A stretch of DNA of 64,000 bases from Escherichia coli O157:H7 (GCF_013167455.1 NZ_CP038328.1); one strand, 5' to 3'. Positions 28,968 through 51,582 are shown, counted from the stretch's first letter. Program-made: numbers and translations. The notes: generated by a model not told the origin, from the letters alone.

Positions 28968-29424
28968 TTAGCATTGGCATTTTATCTGCCCTGGTTGTTT
29001 TATCTTCGACATTACAAACCGCACGGGTATTGGTGGCGTCAAAATCGCTGAAGCGTTCCCCGAAGGCCGGGGCAGCCCACATGGATGTGGGCTGAGGGCG
29101 CGTCTTACAGGACGTTACCTCGCGCCCGACCCGGTTGCCGAAGGGGATAAGCTGAAGGTACCGCGCAGCGGCGATTTTGTTCGCCAGAGCCCGGGGGTGC
29201 AGGGGGCGGCGGCGACTGGCCGCCCCCTGCGCGCTCCCTGCGCCAGTGGCTTTATATGGCATTGCACATGAAAGGAGCGCAACAATGCTAAACACTCATA
29301 TAGAATTAAAAATCCCCCTCTGATGCATAACATTTCCTTTTAATTGCAACTTTACTCGTCCTTCCGCTTTCAGTAGTGTGTCATCGCGCATTTCGACTTC
29401 TTTCTTTGCAAGGGCTGGTTTTTC

Positions 29425-46946: not shown

Positions 46947-46956
46947 TTATTCATTT

Positions 46957-46984
46957 GCCGGAGTGGGCGAACACCCACTCCGGC
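46957..46984. terminator. Perfect 11-bp GC-rich hairpin between convergent artJ and the accessory sulfatase gene (putative bidirectional terminator)
   Basis: GCCGGAGTGGG-cgaaca-CCCACTCCGGC; lies in the 50-bp gap between the two stop codons; no strong U-run on either side. Confidence 0.45.
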
Positions 46985-46996
46985 AAAATCACTTCT

Positions 46997-48478
46997 CTAC
47001 GCTAATCCCAGGCGCTGAAACTGCTCTGGCGGCGCATCATTATCTTTCATCAACTGAATCAGCAACGCGATCATCCGGGACTCGATCACATCATCATGAA
47101 TCGGATGTAGCTGCTGCGGATCGTTTTGCAGATCAAACAGCAAATGACCAAACTGATTCAACCCCTTATATTTTTCCTGTGCCGGGATGCGTAATACCTG
47201 TAACCCTTTGGTAAAACGAAACGGTGGGGCCAGCGATAAAGCCCGCATCTCATCCACCGGATAGCGGCTGTTCATTTTGCAGGACATCAACGTGTAGTTG
47301 GCAATATCATCCTCACGCCCCGGCAGCGCTGCACGCATATACACATAACGCCCATCAGTTACGTTAGCATGACCACTGAAAACACCAAACATCGCCGAGC
47401 TGCGTACTGGTTCATCGTGACTGACCGTTTTCGCCAGCGGTTGCCCCTGCACATCGGGCGGCACTGGCTGTTGAAAAAAGTCATACAACGTTGGCGCCCA
47501 GTCGATCATTTGTACCAGTGCCTGTCGCCGCTCTCCTTTTACACCACTGCGCGGGTTCCAGATAAACAACGGATTATTGGCAACTTCGTTGTAATAAGGC
47601 ATCTGGTTTTTCGCCCACCAGCCATGCTCACCGAGTAAAAAGCCGTGGTCAGTGCCGACAATCAGCATGGTATCTCGCCACAGATCGTGCTCATCCATCA
47701 GGTCGAGAATGCGCCCCAGGTTGCGATCGCACATCGACACCAGCGAACGATACCGGCAACGGATGTGCTCCACGGCCTCGTCGCTTTCCTGCACCCGGCC
47801 ACGCGGCCAGTCATAATGCGGTCCATCCCAGTTATCTTCATACAAGGAAAGATACTCTTCCGTTGTGTGAAACGGCTCGTGCGGATCAAACGTTTCGATC
47901 TGCAATAACCAGTTATCTTCCGCGTGATTTTTGTGGATAAAGGCACAGCCTGCATCAAACACTTTAGTTTGTGGAAAATCCGCTTCCTGCTGAATATATT
48001 CCCGGTTTGCCCAGTCATGGCGCCACAGACCAGAAACACCGCCACCGGTCTGCTTTTGCGGCACCCGTAGCACCTCGGGAATAGGCGGTTGCGCAACGCT
48101 TGCATGCCAGTGATCGCCTTCCTGTCCGCGCACAATCTCCCACGAACTGTAGCGATTATGATAATTCCCGCCGCCATCTTCCCAGTAATGCAAATGATCG
48201 CTTATCAGGTGGGTATAGATCCCCGCCTTTTTAAGCAGCTCCGGCATGGAATCGTCAAACGGTTCTAACGGCCCCCACTCCCGATGCAGGAAGTTACATC
48301 GCCCGGTATGCAACTCCCGCCGGGCAGGCATACACGGCATACTGCCGACGTAACTGTTTTCAAAGGTGGCGGCATGAGCCGCCAGACGTTGGAAATTAGG
48401 CGCTTTGGTTAACGCATCGCCATAAGGTGGCAGATAACGTTTATTCAGACTATCGAACAGCAGAATAATCGCTCTCAT
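46997..48478 (-). CDS. Accessory Cys-type sulfatase-family protein (alkaline-phosphatase superfamily), predicted cytoplasmic
   Basis: 493-aa ORF; sulfatase signature C49-M-P-A-R53 followed by RELHTGRC; no N-terminal signal peptide; last gene of a three-gene minus-strand cluster. Confidence 0.85.
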   Translation of the reverse strand: MRAIILLFDSLNKRYLPPYGDALTKAPNFQRLAAHAATFENSYVGSMPCMPARRELHTGRCNFLHREWGPLEPFDDSMPELLKKAGIYTHLISDHLHYWEDGGGNYHNRYSSWEIVRGQEGDHWHASVAQPPIPEVLRVPQKQTGGGVSGLWRHDWANREYIQQEADFPQTKVFDAGCAFIHKNHAEDNWLLQIETFDPHEPFHTTEEYLSLYEDNWDGPHYDWPRGRVQESDEAVEHIRCRYRSLVSMCDRNLGRILDLMDEHDLWRDTMLIVGTDHGFLLGEHGWWAKNQMPYYNEVANNPLFIWNPRSGVKGERRQALVQMIDWAPTLYDFFQQPVPPDVQGQPLAKTVSHDEPVRSSAMFGVFSGHANVTDGRYVYMRAALPGREDDIANYTLMSCKMNSRYPVDEMRALSLAPPFRFTKGLQVLRIPAQEKYKGLNQFGHLLFDLQNDPQQLHPIHDDVIESRMIALLIQLMKDNDAPPEQFQRLGLA

Positions 48479-48489
48479 TACGCCCTACC

Positions 48490-48810
48490 TTATTGATTAA
48501 TTAAATGCGGAAAATGTTGCTGAACCACTTCATAAATTTGCTGACCAATAGTTTCACCGTCCATAATATTCTCTATCGGAATCAAATATTGCCCTTGTTT
48601 CGGGTCAAGACTAACCACATCGAGTAATTTTTTGGAAATAGCAAAAATATCCGCCCAGTCGGTAAATCCGCCGACTTCACCTGCGGCGGTATGTTCCATT
48701 TCAACTTTGAAATCATATTTGGTCAGCGCTTTTTTAACGACCGTTTGTAACATAACGCTACTGCCTACACCGTAACCACAGACAAACAGAATATTAATTG
48801 TATCTTTCAT
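48490..48810 (-). CDS. Accessory PTS EIIB component, L-ascorbate (UlaB/SgaB)-like family
   Basis: 106-aa ORF MKDTINILFVCGYGVGSSVM... with the CGxGxGSS phospho-cysteine loop characteristic of ascorbate-family EIIB. Confidence 0.8.
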   Translation of the reverse strand: MKDTINILFVCGYGVGSSVMLQTVVKKALTKYDFKVEMEHTAAGEVGGFTDWADIFAISKKLLDVVSLDPKQGQYLIPIENIMDGETIGQQIYEVVQQHFPHLINQ

Positions 48811-48831
48811 TTTTAAACCCTTAATATTTAA

Positions 48832-50175
48832 TTAACCCGCGTAAGGACCAAGATGGAATGTTGCAGCGATAAATTTCAGAACTTCACAAATAGCAGGCCA
48901 TACGGTTGCCCAGTCAAATATTCCTGTCCAGCCGACGCCATTTTCAGCAAGCCCGGTTAACGGAATAGCCCACACCGTACCGAAGGTCTGAATAATACCC
49001 AGCAAGAACGTACAGATAATTACGGAACGGTATCCGCCCATGCGGTTTGCTAATACGCCAATTGGACCGCCAGAGAAAAACAGAGGTACAAAGCCAGGCA
49101 ATACCATAATTGGGCTGTGAACCAGTAATAAGATCCCCATCGAAAAAATGGTGCCAAAAGTACAGAAGACGAAGCCTAACGTTGCGGCATTGGGTGAAAA
49201 AGGTAACAGCGCTGCAACATCGACAGCAGGAATAGCGTTAGGAATAAAGCGATCTTGCCAGCCTTTAAACGAACCGTTAATTTCGCCCACCATCATGCGC
49301 ACACCCTGCAGCAGAATGACCATATACATGGAGAACTGTAAGCCAAGGTTGATGATATAGATGTACCAGGGCTTGCCTTTCGCCATTAACTGGACATTAT
49401 CGATACCCGTTGATAGCAAGAAACCACCGACAAACAGCGTCATCACAATGGCGATAGCCGTTACGTTATGGTTAAAAATCGCCAGCCACCCGGGAAGTTT
49501 CAGGTTTTCAGCATCGTGCTTTTCAGGGTCACCAAATTTATGGGCGAATTTGGAGAAAAACCACAATCCCAACATCTGGTTATGAGCAATGGTAAAACCG
49601 GCATCTTTGGTAACTTTGGCAATGGGCTTAACAATGAGCGTGGTGGAGAACGCCCAGAATACACCCGTTAATATTCCGGCAATAATAATGGATGTAGTCC
49701 AGCTAAAACCCAGCCAAAAGACAATCAACCATAATACCGCCTGAGAATGTGAAACACCGGTATTCCCTGTCAAAAATATCCCTTTGGCACCAGTATACCG
49801 ACCAAATAATACCAGCAGCAGGTTGGTAAAAAACGCCAGTACAAATACATACCCGACATAACCAAAATTATCCCCCAATGCAATTTGCGTTGCCGCTTTC
49901 ATTGCGTAGGAATCCATTAAATATCCGTGAACACCATAGGCTTTACTTACGGCTTCTGCTACCGGTTTAAATGTTGCGGAAAACTGGAAACCACCAAATA
50001 ACACCATCATTAATCCCACCATGGCGCTGACCATGCCGGTAATAATTTTTATTGGCGATTTCTTATCAAGGGCATAACCAATACCCACCAGCAAACCAAT
50101 TAAAATTGCCGGTTCAGTTAAAAACGTTTGAATAACATCTATGAATTTGGCAAACATCGTCGGAACGCCCTCCAT
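48832..50175 (-). CDS. Accessory PTS EIIC permease, L-ascorbate (UlaA/SgaT)-like family
   Basis: 447-aa polytopic membrane ORF; N-terminal third resembles recalled UlaA (e.g. ...FKPVAEAVSKAYGVHGYLMDSYAMKA... versus UlaA ...[27 protein letters not shown]...); an alternative start at the Met 6 codons downstream has a better GGAGG Shine-Dalgarno. Confidence 0.85.
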   Translation of the reverse strand: MEGVPTMFAKFIDVIQTFLTEPAILIGLLVGIGYALDKKSPIKIITGMVSAMVGLMMVLFGGFQFSATFKPVAEAVSKAYGVHGYLMDSYAMKAATQIALGDNFGYVGYVFVLAFFTNLLLVLFGRYTGAKGIFLTGNTGVSHSQAVLWLIVFWLGFSWTTSIIIAGILTGVFWAFSTTLIVKPIAKVTKDAGFTIAHNQMLGLWFFSKFAHKFGDPEKHDAENLKLPGWLAIFNHNVTAIAIVMTLFVGGFLLSTGIDNVQLMAKGKPWYIYIINLGLQFSMYMVILLQGVRMMVGEINGSFKGWQDRFIPNAIPAVDVAALLPFSPNAATLGFVFCTFGTIFSMGILLLVHSPIMVLPGFVPLFFSGGPIGVLANRMGGYRSVIICTFLLGIIQTFGTVWAIPLTGLAENGVGWTGIFDWATVWPAICEVLKFIAATFHLGPYAG

Positions 50176-50365
50176 ACGCGTACATTTCCGTTGTCAATGC
50201 ATGAACCTTCTGCTGACGTTAATAATGTCTCAGGAAATTTTGTGTTTCGCTAAGCAATGCCTCTGTATGTATTCGGTAAGTGCACTGTAGTAATCAAAAC
50301 AGTTCAATTAAAGATCTTATTTGATTATTTGTGATTTGATTTGCAAAAATAGAGCAATATATAAC

Positions 50366-50401
50366 CGTGATCGATCGGTTATTATTAATCGATCGATCAC
50401 G
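50366..50401. promoter_or_regulatory. Perfect 12-bp inverted repeat with 12-nt AT spacer upstream of the accessory PTS cluster (candidate operator or RNA structure)
   Basis: CGTGATCGATCG-gttattattaat-CGATCGATCACG, about 190-225 nt upstream of the EIIC start and 54-89 nt downstream of the rlmC stop. Confidence 0.35.
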
Positions 50402-50454
50402 ATTATTATTTTGGATGGATGTATGCCGAGGTGATATTGATTTGAATGATGTAT

Positions 50455-51582
50455 TTACATTTTTACCAGCAGCGTCAGCACTTCATAGTGCGCGGTGTGC
50501 GGGAACATATCAAAAAGCTGTACCCGTTCGATGCGGTAACCTGGCAGTTCGCGGATATCTTTCGCCATGGTTTGGGCGTTACAGCTGGAGTAGATAATAA
50601 AACGCGGTGCCATCGTTGAGAGATAATCACACAGCGGTTTACCAATGCCGCGGCGCGGCGGGTTAACCAGCACCAGCTCCGGCACCTCCCCCTGAGCGGT
50701 GGCAAACTGAGTGGAGTCCAGCGCCTGAAATTGCAGACGCGTTAAGCCCAGTTCAGCGGCTGACTGCTTTGCACAGGCAATGGCCTCTAGCGCAATTTCG
50801 ATCCCGGTTAACTGCATGTCAGGCGTCGCGCAGTGTAAACCAAAGCCCCCCACACCGCAGAACAGATCCCACATATGTTTAACCGGCAGCTGTCGTACCC
50901 AGTCGCGCGCGGTAGCGTACAGCTGGCTGGCGACCGCCGGATTAGTCTGGAAGAAACTTTGCGGACGGATCCACAGCGGCACATCGTTAAAACGCTCTAC
51001 CAGCGCCTGTTGTTCGGTCAGGTAGATCTCCGTCTCCCCTTCCATAATCGCCATATGTACCGGCTGAATATTGACGGTGATAACTTTTAGCTGCGGCAAT
51101 TGTGCCTGTAACCACGGCAATGCCTTACGCAGTTGTGCTAGTTTGGTTTCAGAACGCAGTACAAAGCGCAGCATCATGCCGCCATCGCTCTGGCTTTCAG
51201 TCAGCAGAATGTATTTCAGTTCGCCACGCTTACGCGCCACGTTGTAGGGCGTTAACCCCGCTCGGGCGATAAACGGTTTTAGCGCCGCAAAAACGGGCGC
51301 AAATGAGGCAGGATAAAGCGGGCAGTCACAAAGGTCTTCCGGTGTGCCGTCGCGATGCAGCATACCGAGCAGTGGTTTTTCAACGCTACCACTCACCACC
51401 ATTTTGGCTTTATTACGAAACCCTTGTTCCGGGCCTGACACCGGCGCGCACCATTCCTCAACCGGAAAGTCGGCGAGCAGATTTTTAAGATCGGCGGTTT
51501 TAGCGGAGAGTTGCTCTGGAATCGGCTGCGTTATCCACTGACAGGAACGACAGCGACCCGCGTCGTAAAGTGCGCACTGCAT
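50455..51582 (-). CDS. rlmC: 23S rRNA (uracil747-C5)-methyltransferase RlmC (RumB)
   Basis: 375-aa [28 protein letters not shown]... with N-terminal Cys cluster and SAM-dependent methyltransferase core. Confidence 0.93.

Follow-up and report, generated by a model that had tools for sequence, protein, structure and literature searches.

A conserved PTS and sulfatase operon between rlmC and artJ of Escherichia coli O157:H7: a candidate route from sulfated ascorbate into the Ula pathway

Introduction

In Escherichia coli O157:H7, the convergent core genes artJ and rlmC are separated by three genes that encode two subunits of a phosphotransferase system (PTS), EIIC and EIIB, and a sulfatase. The trio is absent from E. 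coli K-12. Two questions are raised by this locus: what the trio does, and whether it was gained by O157:H7 or lost by K-12. We analyzed it in a stretch of 64,000 nt of O157:H7 DNA, called the window here, and all coordinates without a locus label are counted from its first letter. The genes themselves are already annotated, as "sulfatase", "PTS sugar transporter subunit IIB" and "PTS sugar transporter subunit IIC" in RefSeq, and the novelty lies in their function, as a variant of the Ula-type PTS pathway. At roughly even confidence, we propose that this self-promoted operon is a PTS-coupled desulfation route that would bring sulfated ascorbate into the Ula pathway. We also propose that the locus is ancestral and that K-12 carries the derived state.

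Gene layout of the rlmC-artJ interval

The region between the artJ and rlmC stops spans 3,508 bp and is 100% identical in many O157:H7 chromosomes. Its genes and their neighbors are as follows.

46215..46946, plus strand: artJ, flanking core gene (annotation of an identical O157 record); its 3' half is unusually diverged from K-12, with 90-95% sliding identity
46997..48478, minus strand: cytoplasmic, Cys-type (formylglycine) S1 sulfatase, 493 aa, Sakai ECs0942 (open reading frame list, profile and motif)
48490..48810, minus strand: PTS EIIB of the UlaB/PTS_IIB type, 106 aa, with the motif VCGYGVGSS (Cys11), Sakai ECs0941 (open reading frame list; PF02302 in an orthologue)
48832..50175, minus strand: PTS EIIC of the L-ascorbate (UlaA/SgaT) family, NCBIfam NF009550, Sakai ECs0940; 447 aa as called
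50169..50173, minus strand: Shine-Dalgarno sequence GGAGG, shared by six genera and located 11 nt before the ATG at 50157
50455..51582, minus strand: rlmC, flanking core gene on the same strand as the trio and upstream of it (open reading frame list and annotation)

An earlier interpretation of this DNA, made from the sequence alone (the sequence-only reading), had already described this layout. The open reading frame list reproduces its coordinates, the minus strand, the gaps of 11 nt (sulfatase/EIIB) and 21 nt (EIIB/EIIC) and the spacing of about 3.5 kb between the end of artJ at 46946 (plus) and the rlmC stop at 50455 (minus) exactly. One detail is probably different. The EIIC frame and family were borne out, but translation more likely starts at the ATG at 50157, which gives 441 aa as in the Sakai annotation, because the conserved GGAGG precedes this ATG and the ATG at 50175 is missing in Enterobacter and Leclercia. 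The trio looks like one operon. The open reading frame list and a repeat search agree with the earlier proposal of a probable operon without mobility genes, none being found among the cluster open reading frames.

Conservation of the PTS and sulfatase module

The family assigned earlier to each of the three proteins also holds. EIIC passes the NCBIfam model NF009550, "PTS sugar transporter subunit IIC", with 964 bits (cutoff 583). With the UlaA equivalog model NF006919 it scores 321 bits, under the cutoff of 380, and is not a UlaA equivalog. It aligns with the UlaA structures over residues 6-437 at about 37% identity (E=3e-94 for 5zov and E=5e-93 for 4rp8), and PF03611 is recorded on its orthologues. 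By full-length homology, then, EIIC is a member of the L-ascorbate (Asc, UlaA/SgaT) family. EIIB has the PTS_IIB phospho-cysteine motif "VCGxGxGSS", and its UlaB-type matches are weak. The third protein matches the Pfam sulfatase family PF00884 (E=6e-28) and has the CxPxR motif.

Close relatives of the sulfatase are found far beyond E. coli, with identities of 86% in Salmonella, about 80% in Enterobacter, Yokenella and Kluyvera, and 62-67% in Firmicutes. A neighborhood scan with one genome per species gave 62 loci. In 33 of these, the sulfatase is immediately preceded by EIIC and EIIB; leaving truncated contigs out of account, this holds for essentially every locus where the sulfatase is at least 60% identical. 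The usual unit in Firmicutes, Olsenella and Streptococcus pacificus is DeoR-EIIC-EIIB-sulfatase, often with EIIA, and in two protein clusters (P0044 and P0082) EIIA is fused to the C-terminus of the sulfatase. The pairing of PTS and sulfatase on which the sequence-only reading was built is thus kept as a unit in at least 33 species, and in some it extends to a single polypeptide. A point not raised in that reading is that the EIIA and the regulator carried by Firmicute relatives are absent from the O157 operon. No EIIA gene (PF00359) was found in the E. coli, Salmonella, Yokenella, Enterobacter, Leclercia or Silvania loci, and no DeoR gene lies beside the trio in the enterobacterial loci. Since all the enterobacterial versions lack EIIA and are nevertheless conserved, a partner acting in trans is implied.

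In two Blautia-like contigs (L084 and L085), a gene for an anaerobic sulfatase maturase (anSME; TIGR03942, 394 bits, cutoff 349) lies directly upstream of the module, and anSME homologues adjoin it in 10 loci, including Leclercia. These neighbors suggest that dependence on a formylglycine-generating system holds for the relatives. More distant sulfatase homologues, with 46-57% identity (Paenibacillus, Streptomyces, Microbacterium, SAR86 and Brachyspira), showed no PTS or ula neighbors and were therefore left out of the functional inference.

Linkage to ascorbate catabolism

One pointer to a substrate is the company that the module keeps in other genomes. On one strand of Neobacillus niacini, the order is EIIA-EIIC(NF009550)-EIIB-sulfatase-UlaG-EIIB-UlaD-UlaE-UlaF, with ulaG starting 27 bp after the sulfatase. 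UlaG, UlaD, UlaE and UlaF all score above their NCBIfam cutoffs in this species, and the canonical UlaA is absent. In Bacillus sp. SD088, ulaF-E-D-G-EIIA-DeoR is divergent from EIIC-EIIB-sulfatase, and in Bacillus sp. FJAT-50079, ulaG-D-E-F runs straight into two successive EIIC-EIIB-sulfatase sets. A Clostridium metagenome-assembled genome (MAG) has ulaG-EIIA-EIIC-EIIB-sulfatase followed by ulaF-ulaE, and Ula genes lie within 6 kb of the module in Olsenella and in an Oscillospiraceae MAG. Two Clostridium species lack the PTS, and there the sulfatase is the last gene of a TctAB-UlaG-UlaF-UlaE-like-transketolase cluster. At least two Ula enzymes within 6 kb were found at six PTS-linked and two non-PTS loci, that is, in eight species, out of about 33 non-enterobacterial close orthologues. 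By a rough estimate, the chance of finding the four-gene pathway in an 18-kb window is well under 1%. No ula linkage was seen among the sulfatase homologues with less than 60% identity. In addition, the module's own EIIA, where relatives have one, scores best against UlaC.

The transporter pocket was compared with that of UlaA, in which ascorbate is contacted by T86, Y87, H135, I136, Q139, H194, Q195, D314, I358, F362 and M410 (PMC6048161). Y87, H194, D314 and F362 are kept in the O157 EIIC, as are G58, G286 and R288 of the V-motif. The full set of contacts is not preserved: the substitutions are T86S, H135N, I136T, Q139S, Q195N, I358V and M410I. The replacements at H135, I136 (to T, A or S), Q139 (to S or A) and Q195 recur across 13 sulfatase-linked EIICs, and together with S59 these positions consistently hold smaller residues in all 13. 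Half of the UlaA ascorbate site is therefore kept and half is shrunk, a pattern that fits an ascorbate scaffold with an extra group.

L-Ascorbate 2-sulfate has such a group, and its C6 hydroxyl is free for phosphorylation by a PTS. It is excreted in urine. Human serum measurements detect it routinely as a metabolite, and there are reports of it from faecal metabolomics (PMC11322087, PMC10416789). With moderate confidence, we suggest that the substrate is a sulfated ascorbate, for which L-ascorbate 2-sulfate is the natural candidate. The sequence-only reading had offered this compound as one of two examples, and the recurring ulaG/D/E/F linkage gives that example strong contextual support; the other, a sulfated sugar from host mucin, found none.

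A second, "type-2" UlaA-like EIIC/EIIB pair of the Asc family was also seen in Firmicutes, with Q139K and M410N relative to UlaA. Its partner is a sulfatase of a different family, or a 622-aa arylsulfotransferase with a SorC-type regulator, and it sometimes stands in tandem with the main module. In Bacillus FJAT-50079 it lies directly downstream of ulaGDEF. The type-2 loci are as follows.

L080, 13345-16425: type-2 EIIC/EIIB
L046, 3692-6908: type-2 EIIC/EIIB
L081, 10738-15383: type-2 EIIC/EIIB

The sulfatase

The formylglycine (FGly) signature of the O157 sulfatase is C49-MPARRELHTGR. C49, P51, A52, R53, R54, E55, H57, G59 and R60 are invariant in 16 diverse homologues, and so are D9, D277, H278 and K290. 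The catalytic core begins at the N-terminus, with the invariant Asp9 as the expected metal ligand. This leaves no space for a signal peptide, and the protein would therefore be cytoplasmic. Structure prediction added little. The AlphaFold model is of moderate quality (pLDDT 68, with residues 45-75 of the active-site loop under 50), and Foldseek recovered only the generic S1 fold, with at most 20% identity to any solved structure and a TM-score of about 0.5, which is uninformative on specificity.

Maturation of the enzyme would have to be provided from elsewhere, as no maturase gene adjoins the trio in O157. E. coli is not known to have a formylglycine-generating enzyme, and its aslB and ydeM genes lie elsewhere in the genome. 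E. coli does mature cytoplasmic Cys-type sulfatases upon heterologous expression, and AslB, YdeM or a third system may act here. We predict that the protein is a genuine FGly sulfatase working with the PTS because of the conservation of the operon, the fusion to a PTS domain and the maturase genes that neighbor relatives.

Promoter, operator and hairpins

The region upstream of EIIC is 279 bp long (50176-50454). It holds a block that is common to Escherichia, Salmonella, Yokenella, Enterobacter, Leclercia and Silvania, in which the operon occupies three different genomic locations. The elements of this region, and a repeat at the other end of the cluster, are as follows.

50284..50345, minus strand: conserved block, a putative promoter/operator by phylogenetic footprint
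50345-50330, minus strand: CRP-like site TGCAA-N6-TCACA, near -61; its spacer varies between genera, as expected
50327-50319 and 50299-50291, minus strand: inverted repeat TAATCAAAT-N19-TTTTGATTA within the block, a candidate operator
50289-50284, minus strand: -10-like TACAGT (TAnnnT), which places the CRP-like site near -61
50366..50401, minus strand: hairpin of about 17 bp with four GATC (Dam) sites in 36 bp, 55 nt after the rlmC stop; folding free energy -28 kcal/mol, z = -5.2
46954..46987, no strand assigned: perfect inverted repeat between the artJ and sulfatase stops, with 14-bp arms TTTGCCGGAGTGGG/CCCACTCCGGCAAA that are 100% complementary; probably a bidirectional terminator

Because the block is conserved whatever the genomic location, the operon is likely to have a promoter of its own, which would be catabolite-controlled and bear an operator. 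Among the upstream regions, only those of Escherichia and Salmonella, in which rlmC is immediately followed by the trio, can be aligned over the hairpin at 50366..50401, and the Salmonella copy carries a compensatory G>A/C>T change. The hairpin is probably an rlmC terminator or insulator. Its density of Dam sites is unusual, and it may be a mere terminator. No Rfam match was found for the 279-bp leader or the rest of the cluster at E values up to 1.

Points against a sulfated-ascorbate route and alternative substrates

Several points weigh against the proposed route. The ula linkage is seen at only 8 of about 41 close orthologue loci, and most modules stand alone. The E. coli operon is far from ula and has no EIIA, DeoR regulator or maturase of its own. 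Its promoter shares GTTTTGATTA and AATCAyAAATAATC with the ulaA promoter in the same order, and this co-linear similarity is statistically weak and may have arisen by chance, the DNA being AT-rich; nor does the window show enrichment of TTNTGATTA (4 found vs 1.9 expected). We do not claim UlaR control from this likeness. The DeoR regulators of the module were considered as UlaR orthologues and rejected, since they are generic members of the DeoR/GlpR family. In the literature open without subscription, we found no functional study of ECs0940-0942 or of bacterial use of ascorbate 2-sulfate; ECs0942 appears in one single-nucleotide polymorphism typing paper only, and wider searches gave unrelated matches, YdeN in a rumen proteome among them. 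Finally, Ser10 stands where classical S1 sulfatases have their second metal-binding Asp, and the closest solved relatives, at most 20% identical, include phosphonate monoester hydrolases. The ester in the substrate may thus be other than sulfate.

This last point leads to one alternative, that the "sulfatase" is an FGly-dependent phosphoester or phosphonate-monoester hydrolase and that what is imported is not sulfated, for example ascorbate 2-phosphate or another phospho-conjugate. The D277-H278 pair and the Ser in place of the second Asp would suit such an enzyme, and there are significant matches to the phosphonate monoester hydrolases 4upk, 2vqr, 2w8s and 4uph and to the PehA family. However, sulfatases dominate the match lists, anaerobic sulfatase maturase genes flank the module, and FGly phosphonate hydrolases are themselves promiscuous sulfatases, as is known from the alkaline phosphatase superfamily. 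We regard this alternative as very improbable.

Another possible explanation is that the same architecture serves a different sulfated carbohydrate, either a mucin or glycosaminoglycan monosaccharide or a sulfated sugar acid that yields a product feeding straight into central metabolism. Many module carriers are gut-associated, and about 25 modules stand alone without catabolic genes, as might be expected if the product were a common sugar phosphate. The best sequence matches in the PDB include the mucin/GlcNAc-6-sulfatases 7p24 and 5g2v, but these matches are partial, with a Foldseek identity of 15-17%. The gene neighborhoods do not favor such a sugar: no nag, aga, uronate or glycoside hydrolase genes recur beside the module, whereas Ula enzymes recur in eight independent species, and a mucin or glycosaminoglycan substrate was dropped as a candidate for want of gene context. 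Membership of EIIC in the ascorbate family, with half of the ascorbate pocket kept, also argues against it. Moreover, from general PTS chemistry, 6-O-sulfation of a hexose would block the usual phosphorylation site. A carbohydrate of this kind is unlikely.

The module could also act on aryl- or enol-sulfate conjugates in general, such as sulfated phenolic glycosides, with the sulfate removed inside the cell by a sulfatase or a sulfotransferase and ascorbate sulfate being at most one of several substrates. In its favor is an arylsulfotransferase-family gene (PF17425 and PF05935, 471 aa, no signal peptide, no NCBIfam model) that lies divergently beside the trio in Enterobacter and Leclercia. Silvania has a split copy, and in one Yokenella genome the sulfatase is followed by a 73-aa fragment. 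These loci are as follows.

L013, 3466-4881: arylsulfotransferase-family gene
L022, 5424-6839: arylsulfotransferase-family gene
L021, 5402-6864: arylsulfotransferase-family gene
L016, 8542-8763: arylsulfotransferase-family gene, 73-aa fragment

A Lachnospiraceae MAG has a second Asc-type EIIC-EIIB followed by an arylsulfotransferase, with no sulfatase in that place, and the top NCBIfam match of the O157 sulfatase is "arylsulfatase", though far under the cutoff. The arylsulfotransferase proteins have no curated family assignment, however, and a PTS requires a sugar-like hydroxyl to phosphorylate. Embedding in ulaG/D/E/F would be unexplained as well, unless the aglycone were ascorbate-like. We consider a general role of this kind rather improbable. 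Taken with the type-2 EIIC/EIIB pairs, the arylsulfotransferase genes suggest a broader set of Asc-type PTSs for sulfate-conjugated, ascorbate-like or enol/aryl substrates.

Distribution in E. coli and origin of the locus

The sequence-only reading had described artJ and rlmC as adjacent and convergent in K-12. This proved correct: in MG1655 they are convergent and 198 bp apart. When complete E. coli genomes were compared, the cluster was present in only 566 of 5,426 (10.4%), always as a single chromosomal copy, and it lay between artJ and rlmC in every record examined. Of these carriers, 411 are at least 99% identical to the window and comprise O157:H7 and several strains without an O157 label. 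The other 155 are about 91% identical and include an O15:H18 strain of sequence type 69 (ST69) and a urinary isolate. Non-carriers have empty sites of at least three lengths. The 198-bp spacer of K-12 consists of two terminator hairpins and a sequence like a repetitive extragenic palindrome (REP), and no remnant of the trio was found in it, the best match to the cluster being 11 nt (E=0.28).

The same reading took the cluster for an insertion into a terminator region, and here the data point the other way. EIIC-EIIB-sulfatase also lies between rlmC and artJ in Salmonella enterica, in the diarizonae and arizonae lineages of that genus, in Escherichia whittamii and two further Escherichia species, and in Yokenella regensburgei, where the interval has extra genes. 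Nucleotide identity between O157 and Salmonella is 78-83% for the trio and 76-80% for artJ, rlmC and ybjO. At the cluster edges, only short direct repeats at chance level were found, none of them meaningful. GC content is somewhat lower in the EIIB/EIIC part (0.41-0.47) than in the flanks (0.53). A horizontally inserted island was rejected because mobility genes and direct repeats are lacking, sister species carry the trio, and its divergence is concordant with that of the flanks. Most simply, the common ancestor of Escherichia and Salmonella would have had the trio at this position, and most E. coli would have lost it since; with the same locus in Salmonella and divergence equal to that of the flanks, the K-12 state is derived. 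Most E. coli would then have replaced the operon with a short REP-containing spacer, while the O157 lineage and others, such as the ST69 strain, retain it.

The genes that abut the indel have had a history of exchange. Sliding identity to K-12 drops there from >99% to 90-96%; artJ (46215-46946) and the 3' part of rlmC (50455-51400) are both in this lower range, and identity exceeds 99% a few kb away. The O157 segment from artJ to EIIC is 99% identical to Escherichia sp. E1V33 (artJ 98.8%), whereas rlmC and ybjO are only 95.6% identical, which points to a tract of inter-lineage recombination with a breakpoint between EIIC and rlmC. For the second E. coli allele, the nearest sequence is that of Escherichia sp. 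MOD1-EC7003 (94-96%). Synonymous divergence between the two E. coli alleles is 0.4-0.8, far beyond the ordinary within-species level. By these comparisons the locus is a recombination mosaic, in which at least two old alleles appear to have been shuffled by homologous recombination among Escherichia lineages.

Loss from so many strains raises the possibility that the E. coli trio is a decaying or silent relic, without function for lack of its own EIIA, regulator and maturase. About 90% of E. coli have lost it, and no reports of expression or phenotype were found in the literature. Shortened sulfatases of 323-378 aa occur in public E. coli and enterohaemorrhagic E. coli data (P0067, 323 aa, 148 members; P0036, 355 aa; P0031, 378 aa, 39 contigs), and IS1 lies inside the cluster in one complete genome (H30), which suggests ongoing decay in some lineages. 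Against this, all three open reading frames are intact in the 566 genomes, and the promoter block is conserved in six genera. Compared with the other E. coli allele, Salmonella and Enterobacter, each of the three genes has a ratio of nonsynonymous to synonymous substitution (dN/dS) of 0.01-0.05, on a par with artJ and rlmC. The conservation of every EIIA-less enterobacterial version, noted above, likewise speaks for a trans-acting partner. A relic is improbable, and the trio appears to be under strong purifying selection and functional in enterobacteria.

Other differences from K-12 in the window

Two further differences were seen outside the cluster. A second segment absent from K-12 lies at 39750-42305, between ybjP and ybjQ, and holds Sakai ECs0949 (413 aa, hypothetical) and ECs0950; beside it, 42100-42700 is only 79-84% identical to K-12. 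At 29011-29285 (275 bp), the window matches the K-12 lysO-aqpZ intergenic region only in inverted orientation, at 90.6%, and the co-linear alignment is broken over 28970-29323. This could be either a small inversion or a palindromic repeat element.

Comparison with known systems

The nearest known system is E. coli UlaABC (SgaTBA). EIIC is of the same fold family, EIIB is of the UlaB type, and the EIIA of relatives is UlaC-like. Relatives are embedded in ulaG/D/E/F operons, and the Firmicute regulators belong to the DeoR family, as in the UlaR repressor system. The differences are that EIIC falls under the UlaA cutoff and in NF009550, that five pocket residues are smaller, and that the operon always includes a sulfatase. 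In E. coli, the trio also lacks EIIA, regulator and catabolic genes and is remote from ula.

The sulfatase resembles the S1 enzymes choline sulfatase BetC (6fny), the Bacteroides S1_11 GlcNAc-6-sulfatases (5g2v, 7p24) and the cytoplasmic arylsulfatase/phosphonate-monoester-hydrolase group (4upi, 4upl, 2vqr) in its Pfam Sulfatase domain, C-x-P-x-R motif and Asp/His/Lys positions, and in the anSME genes beside relatives. It differs from them in its Foldseek identity of at most 20%, its cytoplasmic location and the Ser at the second N-terminal Asp. It also differs in its extreme conservation across phyla (62-67% between E. coli and Firmicutes) and in having a PTS as its partner in place of a TonB/Sus or ABC uptake system.

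Two published loci are comparable. In some pneumococci, Streptococcus pneumoniae SPH1922-1929 combines a lactose-type PTS, a sulfatase, a sulfatase-modifying enzyme and a TauE exporter, and is uncharacterized (PMC3302838). It is likewise a PTS operon with a sulfatase, there with the maturase in the operon, but its EIIC belongs to the Lac rather than the Asc superfamily, it has additional sulfolactate and sulfite genes, and it shows no ula linkage. In Sebaldella termitidis, a sulfatase gene lies inside a duplicated ula regulon and was seen by the authors as an incidental insertion, without a functional proposal (PMC3219644). This is an independent case of a sulfatase, though perhaps of another family, in a ula regulon.

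Proposed pathway and significance

In the pathway that we propose, EI and HPr would pass phosphate to an EIIA encoded elsewhere, since the enterobacterial operons carry none; UlaC is the leading candidate. This EIIA would in turn phosphorylate Cys11 of EIIB. The Asc-family EIIC would import a sulfated ascorbate, most probably L-ascorbate 2-sulfate, with phosphorylation at O6 during uptake. Desulfation would come second: the cytoplasmic FGly sulfatase would free sulfate as a by-product and leave L-ascorbate-6-phosphate, which the core enzymes UlaG/D/E/F would convert to D-xylulose-5-phosphate. Catabolism by UlaG/D/E/F is an established pathway (PMC5934670).

More tentatively, and at a little less than even confidence, we suggest that the salvage of vitamin C conjugates is widespread. 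Gut Firmicutes and some enterobacteria may take up host L-ascorbate 2-sulfate by a dedicated Asc PTS, desulfate it by a dedicated FGly sulfatase and feed the product to Ula, with the second EIIC/sulfatase pair and the arylsulfotransferase variant serving related conjugates. The E. coli form would be a stripped-down version that borrows UlaC, and perhaps UlaR, and is kept only in certain lineages (O157:H7 and the urinary-type ST69 strain), possibly as a niche source of carbon or sulfur in the bovine gut or urine.

If this is true, a substrate and a pathway would be given to a family that is annotated only as "sulfatase" and "PTS sugar transporter IIC/IIB" in thousands of genomes, including those of Salmonella, Enterobacter, O157:H7, the ST69 strain and gut Firmicutes. 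It would be a rare instance of a PTS that imports a sulfated compound to be desulfated inside the cell and, as far as we could find, the first route in bacteria for ascorbate 2-sulfate, a routine vitamin C metabolite of humans and animals. The hypothesis is open to a simple and cheap growth test. The framing of the locus is corrected as well: it would be an ancestral enterobacterial locus rather than an acquisition of O157, which bears on the use of "O-islands" as markers or as presumed virulence-associated imports.

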